Shown here piece by piece: positions 1-8,076 of a stretch of DNA of 8,076 nt; positions within the stretch are counted from its first letter, which is position 1; every line of letters starts with the position of its first letter. The translations under genes and the position numbers were made by a program. Source of the DNA: a virus (taxonomy: Duplodnaviria; Heunggongvirae; Uroviricota; Caudoviricetes); IMG/VR virus record IMGVR_UViG_2531839474_000011, one strand, 5' to 3'. The notes beneath the pieces were generated by a model. It ran no database searches. It saw only the letters and a program-made list of their open reading frames with translations, and had not been told where the DNA came from.

Positions 1-1284
1 TTACTTCTTCGCCTCTGCAACCACTTTACTACCCACGCCGCGGTTATTGTATTCCCACATGCGGTTGTAGTTAGTGTCATTCAGATTGCGCTGTATTTCG
101 TCGTTATCATCTACGCTGCCGGTATTACCCGCAAACGGACGATTAGAGATCACCGCATCGGCCCACGGTTTAGCCGTGTTAAAACCTTCGTTGATGGCGC
201 TATCACGGATCACCACCTGACCGTTGGTATTGGCATCAACATCCAGCGAGCGGCCCAGTTGCGCCACACCATCACCGAAAGCATTGAAACGGCTGTTTAC
301 GGCGAGGAAACCGTAGTAAATGTTGGACAGCGTAGCCGGTGCAAACACATACGCTTCTTGCTGAGTACGTGAGTTCACCACGCGGAATTCGGTGTTATCG
401 AACACCACTGCGCCGCGACCAGAAACGATATCCACATCCCCTTCAATGTAGCTGTTGGTCACCAGCGTACGCGGCTGACGATTTGTTTCCAGACGGTTCT
501 GCACACCGCTGTTGGTGACAAAGAAGGTGTTCTGACGACCGAGAATGTTAACGTTGTTAATCTGTACCTGGTCACCATCAGTACGCAGTGCCACCGCCGG
601 ATGGTTACCTGCATCTACGCTATCGCCCAGCGTGTTTTCGATGGTCAGATTTTGCAGTTGCAGGCCATTGTTTTGTGACCAGAAGACCGCAGAGCAGAGA
701 ACACCGATACTGTCGCTGCGTTTGCTCTGGCAGCTATCGTACATATACCACGCTGGTTTACCTGGCATATATTTGCCGCGCGGGTTGACGTCGTGACGCC
801 AGTCGGCAGGGCTCATGCCACCATCAAGGGAAAGCCCAATCTTCACATCAATCGGTTTTTCACCTGTACCGTACAGAGTAATTCCACCCGGAGCGGCAGG
901 GACATATACCGTTCCCTGATACTCACCAGGCATCACGGCAATATACTGGCGCTTGTTGGTACGCTTGATAATTGCCGCATCTACCGCCGCCTGAATCGTG
1001 GTATGCGTTACACCTTGAGTGCCCGCCGGGCCGACAACAAAGTCAGGTTGCGCAGGCAGGGTAATCGGGGAAGGATTCCACGCTGCAGCACCTGGTGTCA
1101 GGGATGCAAAATAGTGTTGAGCATCGAAATTCTGCGCTTCTTTTGCCGACAGAATCGGGCGAGAAGAGGTACCAGGCGCGGTTTGATCAGAAGGACGTTG
1201 ATCGGGCGGGGTTGAGCTACAGGCGGTCAGCGTCACGCCAAAAGCCAATGCCAGCGCCAGACGGGAAACTGAAAATGTGTTCAC
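1..1284 (-). CDS. ybhC: YbhC-like lipoprotein (pectinesterase-family, putative acyl-CoA thioesterase); host gene flanking attB-lambda
   Basis: Complete 427-aa ORF. GTG start at 1284-1282 with GGAG Shine-Dalgarno 7-8 nt upstream; TAA stop at 3-1. N-terminus MNTFSVSRLALALAFGVTLTAC is a lipoprotein signal peptide with lipobox LTAC. Recognised from memory as the gene on the gal side of attB-lambda. Confidence 0.8.
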   Translation of the reverse strand: MNTFSVSRLALALAFGVTLTACSSTPPDQRPSDQTAPGTSSRPILSAKEAQNFDAQHYFASLTPGAAAWNPSPITLPAQPDFVVGPAGTQGVTHTTIQAAVDAAIIKRTNKRQYIAVMPGEYQGTVYVPAAPGGITLYGTGEKPIDVKIGLSLDGGMSPADWRHDVNPRGKYMPGKPAWYMYDSCQSKRSDSIGVLCSAVFWSQNNGLQLQNLTIENTLGDSVDAGNHPAVALRTDGDQVQINNVNILGRQNTFFVTNSGVQNRLETNRQPRTLVTNSYIEGDVDIVSGRGAVVFDNTEFRVVNSRTQQEAYVFAPATLSNIYYGFLAVNSRFNAFGDGVAQLGRSLDVDANTNGQVVIRDSAINEGFNTAKPWADAVISNRPFAGNTGSVDDNDEIQRNLNDTNYNRMWEYNNRGVGSKVVAEAKK

Positions 1285-1345: not shown

Positions 1346-1425
1346 GTTGGCATTATAAAAAAGCATTGCTTATCAATTTGTTGCAACGAACAGGTCACTA
1401 TCAGTCAAAATAAAATCATTATTTG
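1346..1425. promoter_or_regulatory. P' arm of attL: IHF H' site and tandem Int arm-type sites P'1-P'3
   Basis: IHF-like motif TATCAATTTGTTG at about 1371-1383. Repeated arm-type-like elements GTCACTATCAGTCAAAATAAAATCATTATT at about 1392-1425. Overlaps the 3' end of int as in lambda attP. Confidence 0.7.
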
Positions 1426-2489
1426 ATTTCAATTTTGTCCCACTCCCTGCCTCTGTCATCACGATACTGTGATGCCATGGTGTCCGACTTATGCCCGAGA
1501 AGATGTTGAGCAAACTTATCGCTTATCTGCTTCTCATAGAGTCTTGCAGACAAACTGCGCAACTCGTGAAAGGTAGGCGGATCCCCTTCGAAGGAAAGAC
1601 CTGATGCTTTTCGTGCGCGCATAAAATACCTTGATACTGTGCCGGATGAAAGCGGTTCACGACGAGTAGATGCAATTATGGTTTCTCCGCCAAGAATCTC
1701 TTTGCATTTATCAAGTGTTTCCTTCATTGATATCCCGAGAGCATCAACATGCAATGTTGTTGGGATGGCAATTTTTACGCCTGTTTTGCTTTGCTCGACA
1801 TAAAGATATCCATCTACGATATCAGACCACTTCATTTCGCATAAATCACCAACTCGCTGCCCGGTAACAACAGCCAGTTCCATTGCAAGTCTGAGCCAAC
1901 ATGGTGATGATTCTGCTGCTTGATAAATTTTCAGGTATTCGTCAGCCGTAAGTCTTGATCTCCTTACCTCTGATTTTGCTGCGCGAGTGGCAGCGACAGG
2001 GTTTGTTGTTATATGGCCTTCAGCTATTGCCTCTCGGAATGCATCGCTCAGTGTTGATCTGATTAACTTGGCTGATGCCGCCTTGCCCTCGTCTATGTAT
2101 CCATTGAGCATTGCCGCAATTTCTTTTGTGGTGATGTCTTCAAGTGGAGCATCAGGCAGACCCCTCCTTATTGCTTTAATTTTGCTCATGTAATTTATGA
2201 GTGTCTTCTGCTTGATTCCTCTGCTGGCGAGTATTTTTTCGTAGCGATCAAGCCATGAATGTAACGTAACAGAATTATCACTGTTGATTCTCGCTGTCAG
2301 AGGCTTGTGTTTGTGTCCTGAAAATAACTCAATGTTTGCCTGTATTGCTTCAGTAATTGCTATCCTCCTGTCTCTGCCTAATCCGAACTCTTTACCCGTC
2401 CTTGGGTCCCTGTAGCAGTAATATCCATTGTTTCTTATATAAAGGTTAGGGGGTAAATCCCGGCGCTCATGACTTCGCCTTCTTCCCAT
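1419..2489 (-). CDS. int: lambda integrase (tyrosine site-specific recombinase)
   Basis: 356-aa ORF beginning MGRRRSHERRDLPPNLYIRNNGYYCYRDPRTGKEFGLG and ending ...HLLGHKSDTMASQYRDDRGREWDKIEIK. Matches lambda Int in length and sequence from memory; contains the tyrosine-recombinase catalytic region (HELRS...HLLGH...Y). Position is adjacent to attL. Confidence 0.97.
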   Translation of the reverse strand: MGRRRSHERRDLPPNLYIRNNGYYCYRDPRTGKEFGLGRDRRIAITEAIQANIELFSGHKHKPLTARINSDNSVTLHSWLDRYEKILASRGIKQKTLINYMSKIKAIRRGLPDAPLEDITTKEIAAMLNGYIDEGKAASAKLIRSTLSDAFREAIAEGHITTNPVAATRAAKSEVRRSRLTADEYLKIYQAAESSPCWLRLAMELAVVTGQRVGDLCEMKWSDIVDGYLYVEQSKTGVKIAIPTTLHVDALGISMKETLDKCKEILGGETIIASTRREPLSSGTVSRYFMRARKASGLSFEGDPPTFHELRSLSARLYEKQISDKFAQHLLGHKSDTMASQYRDDRGREWDKIEIK

Positions 2490-2685
2490 TTCTGATTCTC
2501 TTCAAAAGGCTACCTGTTACTGGTCGATTTAAGTCAACCTTTACCGCTGATTCGTGGAACAGATACTCTCTTCCATCCTTAACTGGAGGAGGGAATATCC
2601 TGCATTCGCGCACCCATCGACGAACTGTTTCAAGGCTTCTTGGGCGCCGCTGGCGTGCGTTCCACTCCTGAAGTGTTAAGTACAT
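2467..2685 (-). CDS. xis: lambda excisionase Xis (72 aa)
   Basis: MYLTLQEWNARQRRPRSLETVRRWVRECRIFPPPVKDGREYLFHESAVKVDLNRPVTGSLLKRIRNGKKAKS. ATG at 2685-2683. Overlaps int by 23 nt as in lambda. The 30-codon upstream extension in the ORF track is not used. Confidence 0.93.
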   Translation of the reverse strand: MYLTLQEWNARQRRPRSLETVRRWVRECRIFPPPVKDGREYLFHESAVKVDLNRPVTGSLLKRIRNGKKAKS

Positions 2686-2697
2686 CGCAAAGTCTCC

Positions 2698-2711
2698 GCA
2701 ATTACACGCAA
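2698..2711 (-). promoter_or_regulatory. cII-binding box TTGC-N6-TTGC of the pI (int) promoter, inside the xis 5' region
   Basis: Minus strand reads TTGCGTGTAATTGC (direct TTGC repeat, 6-nt spacer) 13 nt upstream of the xis ATG. This places the pI transcript start inside xis, so pI transcripts encode Int but not Xis (known lambda arrangement). Confidence 0.65.
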
Positions 2712-2733
2712 GAAAAAACCGCATTGATGCGGC
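2710..2733 (-). terminator. putative intrinsic terminator (5-6 bp GC stem + T-run) downstream of the IS2-interrupted gene
   Basis: Minus strand GCCGCATCAATGCGG followed by TTTTTTCTT. A second perfect 7-bp hairpin GCCTCAC-ACTCG-GTGAGGC lies at 2769-2787 without a T-run. The T-run runs into the cII box of pI. Confidence 0.4.
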
Positions 2734-2802
2734 GATGGTAGGTCTGGATATCATTGAGCAATGAACAGGCCTCACCGAGTGTGAGGCGGTGTTATTTCAT
2801 GG

Positions 2803-2846
2803 TTAGTCCTTGCGTAGCTCGCTGATTCTTCTGTAAGTCTCTGGTG
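2803..2846 (-). pseudogene. 3' remnant (last 14 codons + stop) of the accessory gene split by IS2
   Basis: Joining 4183 to 2846 across the IS2 and its 5-bp duplication restores an uninterrupted frame ending ...KIHGNK-APETYRRISELRKD with TAA at 2805-2803. Confidence 0.6.
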
Positions 2847-2851
2847 CTTTG
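2847..2851. repeat. IS2 target-site duplication, left copy (CTTTG)
   Basis: CTTTG immediately outside the IS2 left end; identical 5-mer at 4183-4187 immediately outside the right end. 5 bp is the duplication size known for IS2. Confidence 0.85.
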
Positions 2852-2892
2852 TAGACTGGCCCCCTGAATCTCCAGACAACCAGTATCACTTA
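2852..2892. repeat. IS2 left terminal inverted repeat (IRL)
   Basis: Imperfect inverted complement of 4142-4182. Confidence 0.75.
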
Positions 2893-2942
2893 AATAAGTG
2901 ATAGTCTTAATACTAGTTTTTAGACTAGTCATTGGAGAACAG

Positions 2943-3308
2943 ATGATTGATGTCTTAGGGCCGGAGAAACGCAGACGGCGTACCACACAGGAAAAGATCG
3001 CAATTGTTCAGCAGAGCTTTGAACCGGGGATGACGGTCTCCCTCGTTGCCCGGCAACATGGTGTAGCAGCCAGCCAGTTATTTCTCTGGCGTAAGCAATA
3101 CCAGGAAGGAAGTCTTACTGCTGTCGCCGCCGGAGAACAGGTTGTTCCTGCCTCTGAACTTGCTGCCGCCATGAAGCAGATTAAAGAACTCCAGCGCCTG
3201 CTCGGCAAGAAAACGATGGAAAATGAACTCCTCAAAGAAGCCGTTGAATATGGACGGGCAAAAAAGTGGATAGCGCACGCGCCCTTATTGCCCGGGGATG
3301 GGGAGTAA
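2943..3308 (+). CDS. insC: IS2 InsC (OrfA; helix-turn-helix transposase subunit/regulator)
   Basis: 121 aa: [56 protein letters not shown]... Start ATG at 2943 is preferred over the upstream ATG at 2898 given in the ORF track. Confidence 0.9.
3260..3266 (+). other. programmed -1 ribosomal frameshift heptamer A-AAA-AAG (produces the InsCD fusion transposase)
   Basis: AAAAAAG in the insC zero frame (gcA AAA AAG tgg = A-K-K-W), at the start of the insC/insD overlap. Characteristic of IS2 and IS3-family elements. Confidence 0.75.
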
Positions 3309-4171
3309 GCTTAGTCAGCCGTTGTCTCCGGGTGTCGCGTGCGCAGTTGCACGTCATTCTCAGACGAACCGATGACTGGATGGATGGCCGCCGCAGTCGT
3401 CACACTGATGATACGGATGTGCTTCTCCGTATACACCATGTTATCGGAGAGCTGCCCACGTATGGTTATCGTCGGGTATGGGCGCTGCTTCGCAGACAGG
3501 CAGAACTTGATGGTATGCCTGCGATCAATGCCAAACGTGTTTACCGGATCATGCGCCAGAATGCGCTGTTGCTTGAGCGAAAACCTGCTGTACCGCCATC
3601 GAAACGGGCACATACAGGCAGAGTGGCCGTGAAAGAAAGCAATCAGCGATGGTGCTCTGACGGGTTCGAGTTCTGCTGTGATAACGGAGAGAGACTGCGT
3701 GTCACGTTCGCGCTGGACTGCTGTGATCGTGAGGCACTGCACTGGGCGGTCACTACCGGCGGCTTCAACAGTGAAACAGTACAGGACGTCATGCTGGGAG
3801 CGGTGGAACGCCGCTTCGGCAACGATCTTCCGTCGTCTCCAGTGGAGTGGCTGACGGATAATGGTTCATGCTACCGGGCTAATGAAACACGCCAGTTCGC
3901 CCGGATGTTGGGACTTGAACCGAAGAACACGGCGGTGCGGAGTCCGGAGAGTAACGGAATAGCAGAGAGCTTCGTGAAAACGATAAAGCGTGACTACATC
4001 AGTATCATGCCCAAACCAGACGGGTTAACGGCAGCAAAGAACCTTGCAGAGGCGTTCGAGCATTATAACGAATGGCATCCGCATAGTGCGCTGGGTTATC
4101 GCTCGCCACGGGAATATCTGCGGCAGCGGGCTTGTAATGGGTTAAGTGATAACAGATGTCTGGAAATATAG
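3266..4171 (+). CDS. insD: IS2 InsD (OrfB; DDE transposase catalytic domain, rve/integrase core)
   Basis: 301-aa ORF in the -1 frame relative to insC, starting [20 protein letters not shown]... and ending ...[31 protein letters not shown]. The in-frame start codon at 3266 is GTG. Confidence 0.9.
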
Positions 4172-4182
4172 GGGCAAATCCA
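4142..4182. repeat. IS2 right terminal inverted repeat (IRR)
   Basis: Imperfect inverted complement of IRL; ends ...TATAGGGGCAAATCCA at 4182. Confidence 0.75.
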
Positions 4183-4187
4183 CTTTG
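4183..4187. repeat. IS2 target-site duplication, right copy (CTTTG)
   Basis: Identical to 2847-2851. Confidence 0.85.
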
Positions 4188-4483
4188 TTTCCGTGTATCT
4201 TCATTTCAGACTTCAACAGAGCAACGAGGGAATCCCATTCGTTGAGGATTCCTTTGAATGCCGGAACGCGCTTTGCAACCTTGTTGAATGAATCTCTGAT
4301 TTCTGGAATCTGCTCAACAAGTGCAACGCATCGTCTGAAATCGGCTGCGTCATGGGGAGCGCCGAAGTGATGACCATAGATATTCTTTTTCAGTCCACAT
4401 GCGATTGAGGCAAGAGTTGCGCTACTGATGCCAACATCGCCAGTCGATTGCCATTTCAAAACCTTCATAGCCAAATCTGACAT
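4183..4483 (-). pseudogene. 5' portion of a phage accessory gene of unknown function, cut by IS2 14 codons before its stop
   Basis: Likely start ATG 4483-4481 (MSDLAMKVLKWQSTGDVGISSATLASIACGLKKNIYGHHFGAPHDAADFRRC...) with GGAGA Shine-Dalgarno 6 nt upstream. The ORF-track start at 4510 lacks a Shine-Dalgarno and sits in a terminator hairpin. The frame continues into the IS2 IRR, where 13 IS2-encoded residues ([13 protein letters not shown]) replace the native C-terminus. Confidence 0.6.
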
Positions 4484-4494
4484 TTCTTGTCTCC

Positions 4495-4517
4495 AATAAA
4501 AAACCGCCATCAGGCGG
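4495..4517 (-). terminator. putative intrinsic terminator between the zinc-ribbon ORF and the IS2-interrupted gene
   Basis: Minus strand CCGCC-TGAT-GGCGG followed by TTTTTTATT; the T-run directly abuts the GGAGA Shine-Dalgarno of the next gene. Confidence 0.45.
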
Positions 4518-4583
4518 CTTGGTGTTCTTTCAGTTCTTCAATTCGAATATTGGTTACATTGTTTTCATATATGAATAAATAAA

Positions 4584-4763
4584 TTAGCTTTTTTCGTTGC
4601 CTTCGCGTTCTTTATTAATTTTGACAAAATCGTTTTTACCACGCTCTCCAAATACGTCTTTAGAGTCGTTGTATCCGCAATCGCAGCACACATAATCATC
4701 AGACCATCCACGCATTGTTTTTTCTTTTGCAATATTTCCAGAACCGCATTTTGGACAAGACAT
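4584..4763 (-). CDS. small Cys4 zinc-ribbon protein (59 aa), function unknown
   Basis: MSCPKCGSGNIAKEKTMRGWSDDYVCCDCGYNDSKDVFGERGKNDFVKINKEREGNEKS with CxxC...CCxC. Strong GGAGG Shine-Dalgarno 7 nt upstream of ATG 4763; the longer 70-aa version starting at 4796 has none. AT-rich local composition. Confidence 0.55.
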   Translation of the reverse strand: MSCPKCGSGNIAKEKTMRGWSDDYVCCDCGYNDSKDVFGERGKNDFVKINKEREGNEKS

Positions 4764-4859
4764 ATCACTACCTCCAAAGCATGAGAGAGATGACAACGTA
4801 ACATTGATTGGAGATTAACAATAGATTGCTGATGTAAAAGATATGTATAAGCTTAGCTA

Positions 4860-5507
4860 TCAAAGAGGAGGTTCTGGTAGTTGCATCCAGTCGGTTACAT
4901 TGCGACTCTGTGTTTCGAAAAATTCATCACCATTGCGGACAATATCGAAAAACTCTCCGTCTCGATATTGCGCATAAAGAACGAATGCGCCATCACATAA
5001 AATAATTACGTGCTGACCATCATCTGGCATTAGCTCACTACAGCTTATCCAACCATCCGGAGTTACCGGAGAGTTGCCGGGTTCTTTAATGTGCAAACGA
5101 GGCTCACCATCTTTTGGTTCAGGCCACTGACGCTCCATGTTGATCTTCAATTTATTTTCCATAGCAGCGGTAATTTCAGCATCACTGATACCGGCACGGC
5201 GCTGTGCATCCCACAACAGGAACTGCATATCAGCCCACTCGCTGAGATCGTCAGGTTCGGCTGCGGCTTCCAGAGCCTCTTTTGAGAGGTGTTTCAGTGG
5301 ACCAATGGGGCCAACGCAGCCAAATGTGGAGTCAGACCATTTGGCATGCTCGTGGCGAACCCGCTCGCGTTCCAGTGAGGCGAGAGCGATTTTAAATGCT
5401 GTAAGCATGTGTGCTTGATCGTTATCGAGTCCGAATGGCATTTCATCTCGTGCTGACTCAATACTGGTAATCGTATTTTGTAGCCATTCCATGGTAAAAG
5501 TGCTCAT
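4860..5507 (-). CDS. 215-aa phage accessory protein; two-domain architecture resembling the DUF550/DUF551 class found near Ea22-like genes (unverified)
   Basis: ATG overlaps the upstream stop in an ATGA junction (5504-5507). Acidic N-terminal region; C-terminal region GWISCSELMPDDGQHVIILCDGAFVLYAQYRDGEFFDIVRNGDEFFETQSRNVTDWMQLPEPP. The domain assignment is from memory only. Confidence 0.65.
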   Translation of the reverse strand: MSTFTMEWLQNTITSIESARDEMPFGLDNDQAHMLTAFKIALASLERERVRHEHAKWSDSTFGCVGPIGPLKHLSKEALEAAAEPDDLSEWADMQFLLWDAQRRAGISDAEITAAMENKLKINMERQWPEPKDGEPRLHIKEPGNSPVTPDGWISCSELMPDDGQHVIILCDGAFVLYAQYRDGEFFDIVRNGDEFFETQSRNVTDWMQLPEPPL

Positions 5508-5875
5508 CGTAAAATATCCTCTATACTGGTAAGCCCTTCATTATTTAGCCAGATCATTGCGTCATCCGGCAACTTGCTGTCTGGTTTTGCGTTTTTGAGA
5601 GAGGAACTCAGTCGCTTAATCCACATTGTCAGCTCAGTAATGCGCCTGTGTTTGCCTTCCAGCTCAACGCGCAGCCTCCCTACCGTTAGTGCAATATCCT
5701 CGTTCTCCTTGTCGCGGCGTTTGATGTATTGCTGGTTTCTTTCCCGTTCATCCAGCAGTGCCAGCACAATCGATGGTGTTACCAGCTCATGGAAAAGGTC
5801 CGCGTCAAATCCCCAGTTGTCATGCATTGCCTGCTCTGCCGCTTCACGCAGTGCCTGAGAGTTAATTTCGCTCAC
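5504..5875 (-). CDS. Ea22-like protein, short variant (123 aa)
   Basis: N-terminus MSEINSQALREAAEQAMHDNWGFDADLFHELVTPSIVLALLDERERNQQYIKRRD resembles the lambda Ea22 N-terminus from memory. The rest is predicted coiled coil and the protein is shorter than lambda Ea22 (182 aa). GTG start with GAGAGG Shine-Dalgarno; GTGA overlap with the upstream stop. Confidence 0.7.
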   Translation of the reverse strand: MSEINSQALREAAEQAMHDNWGFDADLFHELVTPSIVLALLDERERNQQYIKRRDKENEDIALTVGRLRVELEGKHRRITELTMWIKRLSSSLKNAKPDSKLPDDAMIWLNNEGLTSIEDILR

Positions 5876-6093
5876 TTCGAACCTCTCTGTTTACTGATAA
5901 GCTCCAGAACTTCCTGGCAACTTGCACAAGTCCGACAACCCTGAACGGCCAGGCGTCTTCGCTCATCTATGGGATCGCCACACTCACAACAATGAGTGGC
6001 AGATATAGCCTGGTGGTCCAGGCGGCGCATTTTTATTGCTGTGTTGCGCTGTAATTCTTCAATTTCTGATGCTGAATCAATGATGTCTGCCAT
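5872..6093 (-). CDS. DksA/TraR-family C4 zinc-finger protein (73 aa), TraR-like RNA polymerase secondary-channel regulator
   Basis: MADIIDSASEIEELQRNTAIKMRRLDHQAISATHCCECGDPIDERRRLAVQGCRTCASCQEVLELISKQRGSK. CxxC-x14-CxxC spacing and 73-aa length, as in F-plasmid TraR and the lambda TraR homolog. Confidence 0.8.
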   Translation of the reverse strand: MADIIDSASEIEELQRNTAIKMRRLDHQAISATHCCECGDPIDERRRLAVQGCRTCASCQEVLELISKQRGSK

Positions 6094-6142
6094 CTTTCAT
6101 TAATCCCTGAATTGTTGGTTAATACGCTTGAGGGTGAATGCG

Positions 6143-6169
6143 AATAATAAAAAAGGAGCCTGTAGCTCC
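6143..6169 (-). terminator. putative intrinsic terminator (GGAGC-TACAG-GCTCC + TTTTTTATTATT)
   Basis: 5-bp GC-rich stem with a long T-run on the minus strand, in the 98-nt gap between the 93-aa ORF and the TraR-like gene. Confidence 0.35.
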
Positions 6170-6191
6170 ATGATGATTTTGTTTTTCATGC

Positions 6192-6473
6192 TCACCGTTC
6201 CTTAAAGACGCCGTTTAACATGCCGATCGCCAGGCTTAAATGAGTCGGTGTGAATCCCATCAGCGTTACCGTTTCGCGGTGCTTCTTCAGTACGCTACGG
6301 CAAATGTCATCGACGTTTTTATCCGGAAACTGCTGTCTGGCTTTTTTGATTTCAGAATTAGCCTGACGGGCAATGCTGCGAAGGGCGTTTTCCTGCTGAG
6401 GTGTCACTGAACAAGCCCCATGTCGGCAAGCATAAGCACACAGAATATGAAGCCCGCTGCCAGAAAAATGCAT
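6192..6473 (-). CDS. hypothetical protein (93 aa), start uncertain
   Basis: ORF MHFSGSGLHILCAYACRHGACSVTPQQENALRSIARQANSEIKKARQQFPDKNVDDICRSVLKKHRETVTLMGFTPTHLSLAIGMLNGVFKER. No clear Shine-Dalgarno at the ATG, which lies 10 nt after the orf63 stop, so coupling is possible. An alternative GTG start at V23 has a GGGG motif upstream. Confidence 0.45.
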   Translation of the reverse strand: MHFSGSGLHILCAYACRHGACSVTPQQENALRSIARQANSEIKKARQQFPDKNVDDICRSVLKKHRETVTLMGFTPTHLSLAIGMLNGVFKER

Positions 6474-6483
6474 TCAGTGGTTG

Positions 6484-6675
6484 TCATACCTGGTCTCTCT
6501 CATCTGCTTCTGCTTTCGCCACCATCATTTCCAGTTTTTGTGAAAGGGATGTGGCTAACGTATGAAATTCTTCGTCTGTTTCTACTGGTATTGGCACAAA
6601 CCTGATTCCAATTTGAGCAAGGCTATGTGCCATCTCGATACTCGTTCTTAACTCAACAGGAGATGCTTTGTGCAT
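6484..6675 (-). CDS. orf63: lambda Orf63-like protein (63 aa)
   Basis: [69 protein letters not shown] Shine-Dalgarno. Size, 28-nt overlap with the upstream gene and position relative to exo match lambda orf63. Confidence 0.7.
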   Translation of the reverse strand: MHKASPVELRTSIEMAHSLAQIGIRFVPIPVETDEEFHTLATSLSQKLEMMVAKAEADERDQV

Positions 6676-6830
6676 ACAGCCCCTCGTTTATTATTTATCT
6701 CCTCAGCCAGCCGCTGTGCTTTCAGTGGATTTCGGATAACAGAAAGGCCGGGAAATACCCAGCCTCGCTTTGTAACGGAGTAGACGAAAGTGATTGCGCC
6801 TACCCGGATATTATCGTGAGGATGCGTCAT
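6648..6830 (-). CDS. orf60a: lambda Orf60a-like protein (60 aa)
   Basis: [63 protein letters not shown] at 6830 forms an ATGA overlap with the exo stop, as in lambda. The ORF-track start two codons upstream (6836) is an alternative. Confidence 0.7.
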
Positions 6831-7507
6831 CGCCATTGCTCCCCAAATACAAAACCAATTTCAGCCAGTGCCTCGTCCATTTTTTCGATGAACTCCGGCA
6901 CCATCTCGTCAAAACTCGCCATGTACTTTTCATCCCGCTCAACCACGACATAATGCAGTCCTTCACGCTTCATACGCGGGTCATAGTTGGCAAAGTACCA
7001 GGCATCTTTTCGTGTCACCCACATGCTGTACTGCACCTGGGCCATGTAAGCCGACTTTATGGCCTCGAAACCACCGAGCCGGAACTTCATGAAATCCCGG
7101 GAGGTAAACGGGCATTTCAGCTCAAGGCCATTGCCGTCACTGCATAAACCATCGGGAGAGCAGGCGGTGCGCATACTTTCGTCGCGATAGATGATCGGGG
7201 ATTCAGTAACATTCACGCCGGAAGTGAATTCAAACAGGGTTCTGGCGTCGTTCTCGTACTGTTTTCCCCATGCCAGCGCCTTAGCATTAACTTCCGGAGC
7301 CACACCGGTGCAAACCTCAGCCAGCAGGGTGTGGAAGTAGGACATTTTCATGTCAGGCCACTTCTTTCCTGAGCGGGGCTTGGCTATCACGTTGTGAACT
7401 TCTGAAGCGGTGATGACGCCGAGCCGTAATTTGTGCCATGCATCATCCCCCTGTTCGACAGCTCTCACGTCGATCCCGGTACGCTGCAGGATAATGTCCG
7501 GTGTCAT
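6827..7507 (-). CDS. exo: lambda exonuclease (Red-alpha; 5'-3' dsDNA exonuclease)
   Basis: 226 aa, [69 protein letters not shown]...[11 protein letters not shown]. Recognised as lambda Exo. ATGA overlap with the bet stop. Confidence 0.95.
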
Positions 7508-8076
7508 GCTGCCACCTTCTGCTCAGTGGCTTTCTGTTTCAGGAATCCAAGAGCTTTCACTGCTTCGGCCTGTGTCAGTTCTGACGATGCGCGAATGTCG
7601 CGGCGAAATATCTGGGAACAGAGCGGCAATAAGTCGTCATCCCATGTTTTGTCCAGGGCAATCAGCAGAGTGTTAATCTCCTGCATGGTTTCATCGTTAA
7701 CCGGAGTAATGTCGCGTTCCGGCTGACGTTCTGCGGTGTATGCGGTATTTTCGACAATGCGCTCGGCTTCATCCTTGTCATAGATACCAGCAAATCCGAA
7801 GGCCAGACGGGCACACTGAATCATGGCTTTATGCCGTAACATCCGTTTGGGATGCGACTGCCACGGCCCCGTAATTTCTCTGCCTTCGCGGGTTTTGAAT
7901 GGTTCGCGACGGCATTCATCCATCCACTCGGTAACGCAGATCGGATGATTACGGTCCTTGCGGTAAATCCGGCATGTACAGGATTCATTGTCCTGCTCAA
8001 AGTCCATGCCATCAAACTGCTGGTTTTCATTGATGATGCGGGACCAGCCATCAACGCCCACCACCGGAACGATGCC
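7504..8076 (-). CDS. bet: lambda Bet (Red-beta single-strand annealing protein), C-terminal 190 codons; 5' end lies beyond the window
   Basis: In-frame to the window edge, ending ...[26 protein letters not shown] with TGA at 7506-7504. Matches the lambda Bet C-terminus from memory. The ATG at 8064 in the ORF track is internal. Confidence 0.95.

Follow-up and report, generated by a model that had tools for sequence, protein, structure and literature searches.

A complete copy of the insertion sequence IS2 has recently transposed into a lambda-like prophage of E. coli M919 that occupies the lambda attachment site, where it interrupts a phage gene located upstream of xis. The insertion is real but routine, and nothing about it departs from known biology. 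In our judgement it is probably a recent standard IS2 insertion that is near-neutral, lineage-specific and situated in a dispensable region, and prophage excision is probably little changed by it. Its importance beyond annotation is small. It does offer a clean, datable example of an IS element hitting a dispensable prophage gene whose ancestral allele is still circulating and common, and in the long run this IS2 copy may matter as a starting point for IS-mediated prophage decay.

The IS2 element and the interrupted phage gene

The window, i.e. the whole stretch of 8,076 nt that was analysed, starts with the host gene ybhC (1–1284, minus strand), which adjoins the attL core GCTTTTTTATACTAA (1331–1345), recognized by comparison with lambda. 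The next gene is int (1419–2489, minus strand), encoding a protein of 356 aa that has arm-binding and tyrosine recombinase domains and shows three differences from lambda Int. It is followed by xis (2467–2685, minus strand), encoding a 72-aa member of the Exc family (Pfam Exc, 3.9e-41) with a single difference from lambda Xis, G59S. The cII-binding box of the promoter pI (TTGC-N6-TTGC, TTGCGTGTAATTGC, 2698–2711, minus strand) is identical to that of lambda. The leftward early genes at the other end of the window include exo (6827–7507, minus strand) and the first 573 nt of bet, which reach up to position 8076.

Positions 1331–2722, comprising the att core, int, xis and 37 bp beyond, are 98.1% identical to lambda, and the identity is 97.2% for positions 5657–8076, from the end of ea22 through bet. 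The middle of the window, between these two lambda-like stretches, is non-lambda accessory DNA. Positions 4584–5875 hold accessory genes that replace lambda ea8.5 and most of ea22. They encode a 60-aa zinc-ribbon protein (annotated as Eag and weakly matching the restriction-alleviation family Lar), a 215-aa protein in which a dATP/dGTP pyrophosphohydrolase domain is fused to DUF551, and a short Ea22-like protein. Position 8076 is the very end of scaffold JH659569.1 (1.37 Mb, draft genome GCA_000261145.1 of E. coli M919) and lies inside bet. The remainder of the prophage is probably located on other M919 contigs, with the assembly broken at a bet/gam repeat that is shared with another prophage.

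The IS2 element belongs to the IS3 family and occupies positions 2852–4182 (plus strand, 1331 bp), starting with TAGACTGGCCCCC and ending with GGGGCAAATCCA. Many copies in complete E. coli genomes that are annotated as “IS3-like element IS2 family transposase” match it from end to end with 100% identity. An inverted-repeat search and a gapped alignment defined the imperfect terminal repeats, which align with one gap, i.e. the left repeat IRL of 42 bp (2852–2893, plus strand), which faces xis, and the right repeat IRR of 41 bp (4142–4182, plus strand), which faces the upstream phage genes. The gene orfA (2943–3308, plus strand) encodes the InsC/TnpA repressor of 121 aa, and orfB (3266–4171, plus strand) encodes the catalytic DDE/rve part of 301 aa. 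The two genes overlap, and the sequence motif of the A6G window is present (3260–3266, plus strand), at which a −1 frameshift yields OrfAB. Both proteins were matched over their entire lengths by IS2-specific NCBIfam models, with scores above the respective cut-offs, i.e. TnpA by NF006928 (residues 1–121 of 121, 276.4 bits versus 229) and TnpB by NF006918 (residues 1–301 of 301, 727.6 bits versus 597). Pfam matches in the IS2 proteins were HTH_Tnp_1, rve and rve_3 (PF00665, PF13683). A 42-bp IRL, a 41-bp IRR and an A6G frameshift window have all been described for IS2 (PMC3299598).

The original prediction had named a full 1331-bp IS2 with genes running opposite to the phage operon. The identity to annotated copies, the passed NCBIfam cut-offs and the terminal repeats bear out the former point, and the strands bear out the latter, as the IS2 genes are on the plus strand and all phage genes of the window, including the leftward operon, are on the minus strand. 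Like other elements of the IS3 family, IS2 transposes by a copy-out-paste-in mechanism via a figure-of-eight and a minicircle. The sequence requirements for minicircle transposition appear intact in this copy, which is standard and apparently functional. The internal IS2 sequence of the short-read scaffold may represent a consensus of several copies.

IS2 is flanked by perfect CTTTG direct repeats, as had been predicted, with the left copy at 2847–2851 and the right copy, confirmed by direct inspection, at 4183–4187. The chance of a 5-bp match at the exact flanking positions is about 1 in 1024. The empty site was built in silico by deleting IS2 and one CTTTG, and the resulting 2000-bp query was compared with the complete E. 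coli genomes. An uninterrupted allele was found in three of them, each time in one piece (NZ_CP148323.1, 99.9%; NZ_CP148334.1, 99.8%; NZ_AP022107.1, 98.8%), so that the search for it that had been suggested along with the prediction was successful. CTTTG is present as a single copy in the empty-site allele, e.g. in the relative Z1323HEC0477 (L001). The proposal of a simple transposition event is thus well founded on the target duplication, the collinear flanks and the existence of an empty-site allele; the terminal repeats and the duplication were also both present when they were rechecked on realignment.

Placement of IS2 at this locus by scaffolding or gap-filling of the draft genome would be a different explanation, and we assign it a negligible probability. 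It is true that the source is a draft scaffold (GCA_000261145.1) that ends inside a repeated phage gene, and that IS copies are typical trouble spots for assemblers. However, each junction coincides to the base with a known IS2 terminus, and the perfectly duplicated 5-bp sequence on either side of the element is present as one copy in the empty allele. An erroneous join would not create a target-site duplication, which argues against an artefact.

The IS-free relatives that are closest to the window are themselves damaged. In Z1323HEC0477 (L001, 11108–11998), gam runs straight into a partial ren and emrE, with the entire immunity and replication region missing. In Z1323HEC0423 (L007, 14168–16912), bet is split by IS100.

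The element had been expected to lie between genes, upstream of xis. It is indeed upstream of xis, the ATG of which is at 2685, 166 bp from IS2, but it is located inside a coding sequence and not between genes, since it cuts a conserved phage gene of 114 codons after codon 100. The 5′ part of the interrupted ORF, i.e. codons 1–100 and the first base of codon 101, is at 4183–4483 (minus strand). The orphaned 3′ remnant, i.e. the last 14 codons and the stop codon, is at 2803–2846 (minus strand). In its present form, the ORF (4142–4483, minus strand) is a fusion that has its stop inside IRR, and the last 14 residues of the phage protein, its conserved C-terminus, have been exchanged for 13 IS-encoded residues that follow the 100 native ones. 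This 113-aa fusion protein (EIF86662.1, ESMG_01271) is recorded on one contig only, that of E. coli M919. The in silico restored 114-codon protein, which ends with HGNKAPETYRRISELRKD followed by the stop, is identical at every position to a protein recorded on at least 1000 public contigs. The gene call ESMG_01271 of E. coli M919 should be corrected to an IS2-truncated gene of the family phrog_1229.

The interrupted ORF matches phrog_1229 from end to end (E = 1.1e-51), a family with no assigned function, and the intact gene in the empty-site genome L001 is annotated as hypothetical protein WP_001281197.1. An ORF of the same 114 codons is also found upstream of xis in HK022, with 97% identity, and homologues are encoded by an Stx1a phage (100%), by phage Gally, and by Salmonella, Klebsiella and Vibrio phages. 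Because of the end-to-end family match and the occurrence of the same ORF in HK022 and other phages, the comparisons identify it as a real gene, which is an accessory gene of the leftward early operon. Searches of Pfam, NCBIfam, PADLOC and PDB with the 114-codon ORF gave no sequence match, and the model that AlphaFold predicted from the single sequence (mean pLDDT 49.9) was of insufficient quality for a fold search.

In comparison with lambda, the 114-codon ORF (2723–4493 without IS2) forms an additional cassette next to xis, on its upstream side. Related hairpins, each with a T run, border the cassette on both sides; the upstream one is the homologue of the lambda hairpin in front of pI and xis, and the downstream one is a variant. 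The cassette resembles a moron-type gene insertion in which a terminator was either duplicated or recruited. The stop codon of the 114-codon gene is followed immediately, ahead of a hairpin at 2769–2787, by a two-codon mini-ORF (ATG AAA TAA, 2791–2799, minus strand), which is probably meaningless.

Frequency of the insertion and of IS2 in related prophages

Among the complete E. coli genomes, none covers more than 84% of the window, i.e. everything but IS2, and none has this insertion. The 30-nt left junction had no match in species-representative genomes or in JGI metagenome contigs. The insertion allele at the CTTTG site is therefore private to M919, while the type of event is common. IS2 matches 4854 of the 5426 complete genomes, at a median of four places per genome. 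Among 50,697 phage records, only 10 contain IS2, and one of these is the lambda-like phage PhiR11_1, for which E. coli K-12 MG1655 is listed as the host.

Other lambda-like prophages at the ybhC/att-lambda site have repeatedly acquired IS2 in their leftward early regions, in independent events. Three of them have the same orientation as in the window, i.e. those of strain 582 (L002; IS2 at 6706–8036, target duplication ATTTC), of the APEC O78 lineage (L003; 6074–7404, target duplication GTAAG), and of 14EC020 (L006; about 9050–10390, between an ea10-like gene and N). The opposite orientation is found in FDAARGOS_1249 (L008; IS2 at about 3760–5100) and in RL465 (L009; about 3870–5210).

The first three cases (L002, L003 and L006) all had the orientation of the window, and selection for a polar orientation was considered as a cause and rejected. 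The initial search had favoured this orientation, because only IS2 on the same strand added to the coverage. A control search with IS2 flipped in silico retrieved a comparable set with the opposite orientation, which was verified in L008 and L009, and there is hence no evidence for selection on orientation. The leftward early region is best read as tolerant of IS2 insertions and dispensable.

Transcription into xis and the expected effect on excision

The IS2 ends that face outward next to phage genes had been pointed out in the original prediction, and activation of phage genes from these ends was evaluated. An outward promoter at an IS2 end would drive xis and int, or would generate transcripts that are antisense to the phage early genes. 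An outward-directed −35 box is located in IRR, and a fusion promoter can arise from it if the flank contains a correctly spaced −10 box (PMC9330008, PMC3299598). Here, IRR is directed away from xis, and the flanking hexamers at 16–18 bp from its −35 box are CTTTGT, TTTGTT and TTGTTT, none of which is a usable −10 box. A promoter consensus scan of positions 2400–4900 on both strands yielded no promoter-like site. It is IRL that faces xis, and this left end of IS2 is not known to carry an outward promoter. Promoter activity of the outward-facing ends is thus without a counterpart in the sequence, and gene activation is an extremely improbable consequence of the insertion.

The second predicted effect was a shortage of Xis and an impaired excision of the prophage. 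It had been deduced from the lambda logic that Xis is made from the pL transcript and that pI makes Int only. This logic is correct for lambda, and the window has retained the pI cII box. The box (2711–2698, minus strand) is situated downstream of IS2, where it overlaps the xis start. As a consequence, Int synthesis from pI is expected to be untouched by IS2, pI would serve int only, and xis must be reached by transcripts from upstream.

Transcripts approaching xis encounter two terminator-like hairpins. One of them, with a T run, is located upstream of the interrupted ORF (4501–4520, minus strand; −13.4 kcal/mol, z = −3.0). The other, with a T6 run, is found immediately upstream of the cII box and xis (2718–2733, minus strand; −8.3 kcal/mol, z = −0.8); it is weak and can be regarded as a putative terminator. 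The lambda hairpin that precedes xis is homologous to the hairpin at 4501–4520, and lambda also has an equivalent at the place of 2718–2733. For leftward transcripts, the insertion has extended the untranslated distance to the start of xis from 117 nt to 1456 nt. The antisense IS2 RNA contains 390 C versus 318 G, and several 78-nt windows have a C/G ratio of at least 1.4, a measure that is heuristic only.

One reading of these features is a polar block, in which IS2 terminates leftward pL transcription before xis, so that induced cells are short of Xis and the prophage excises poorly or is locked in. IS2 is known to carry Rho-dependent terminators (PMC3737525), and the 1456 nt of untranslated, IS2-antisense RNA ahead of xis are C-rich relative to G. 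In addition, pI is located downstream of the xis start and cannot supply Xis. Nothing would override the block if N or nutL had been lost, and some relatives are without the immunity region. If it were true, the prophage would be a natural example of IS-mediated prophage anchoring, an outcome that is at odds with the predictions of classical lambda genetics.

In lambda, transcripts from pL pass several terminators before they reach xis, and polymerase modified by N resists terminators of both the Rho-dependent and the intrinsic kind across many kilobases. Relief by N of the polar effects of IS insertions in gal was reportedly found by Adhya, Gottesman and de Crombrugghe in 1974. After induction of lambda, N-modified pL transcription extends beyond attL into gal, the transcription of which is increased about 13-fold (PMC2147009). 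An N-like protein is encoded in the closest complete relative, NZ_CP148334.1 (L007; PF25694, 91.5 bits). Because hairpins precede xis already in lambda and in the IS-free allele, pL transcripts that reach xis would already be antiterminated, with or without IS2. Furthermore, IS2 is found in both orientations in this region, with no sign of selection for one of them. A prophage that has lost the functions of pL, N or nutL would be defective for reasons that are unrelated to IS2. Taken together, a polar block is unlikely, and the predicted Xis shortage and excision defect are doubtful and weakly supported, given that the hairpins before xis exist without IS2 and that the closest complete relative has the N-like gene.

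The preferred reading of a near-neutral insertion leads to the following scenario. IS2 has transposed into the phrog_1229 gene just after codon 100, duplicating CTTTG, and leftward transcripts must now cross 1456 nt of untranslated, IS2-antisense RNA with more C than G before they reach xis. Unmodified RNA polymerase would be stopped there by Rho, and it would also be stopped by the hairpins that are already present upstream of xis. In contrast, polymerase modified by N at nutL would read through IS2. The supply of Xis and Int after induction, and hence excision, would be little changed. This scenario assumes that M919 has retained pL, N and nutL, which would lie beyond the contig end inside bet, and relatives of the prophage are often decayed.

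A more far-reaching idea is that IS2 partly uncouples xis from pL. After induction, replication and packaging would start while the prophage is still integrated, or excision would not occur at all. In such a delayed-excision state, the flanking host DNA (ybhC-gal and bio) would be amplified and possibly transduced, and the recurrent IS2 hits would reflect selection for prophage anchoring. We regard this idea as very improbable.

Comparison with known systems

The element itself does not differ from the reference IS2 (InsC/InsD, OrfAB), with which it shares length, sequence, terminal repeats, frameshift window and 5-bp duplication. The insertion site alone is particular to the M919 copy. Other prophages at the ybhC site also have IS2 in the leftward early region, but with different target genes and different duplications. 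HK022 has the same 114-codon ORF upstream of xis, whereas this gene is broken by IS2 in the window.

The similarity to lambda is high at both ends of the region under discussion. The genes int and xis are 98% identical, and lambda and the window share the att core, the pI cII box, the hairpin in front of xis and the gene order bet-exo-orf60a-orf63. The two differ in the central part, where lambda has ea8.5 and part of ea22, and the window has phrog_1229, the Eag-like zinc ribbon and the dATP/dGTP pyrophosphohydrolase-DUF551 protein.

As in galEP3 (gal3) and the classical polar IS2 insertions, IS2 with its Rho-dependent terminators is located within a polycistronic operon of the prophage, ahead of genes that rely on read-through. 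In contrast to galEP3, however, the operon in the window would normally be transcribed by polymerase under N-type antitermination, which is expected to ignore the terminators of IS2.
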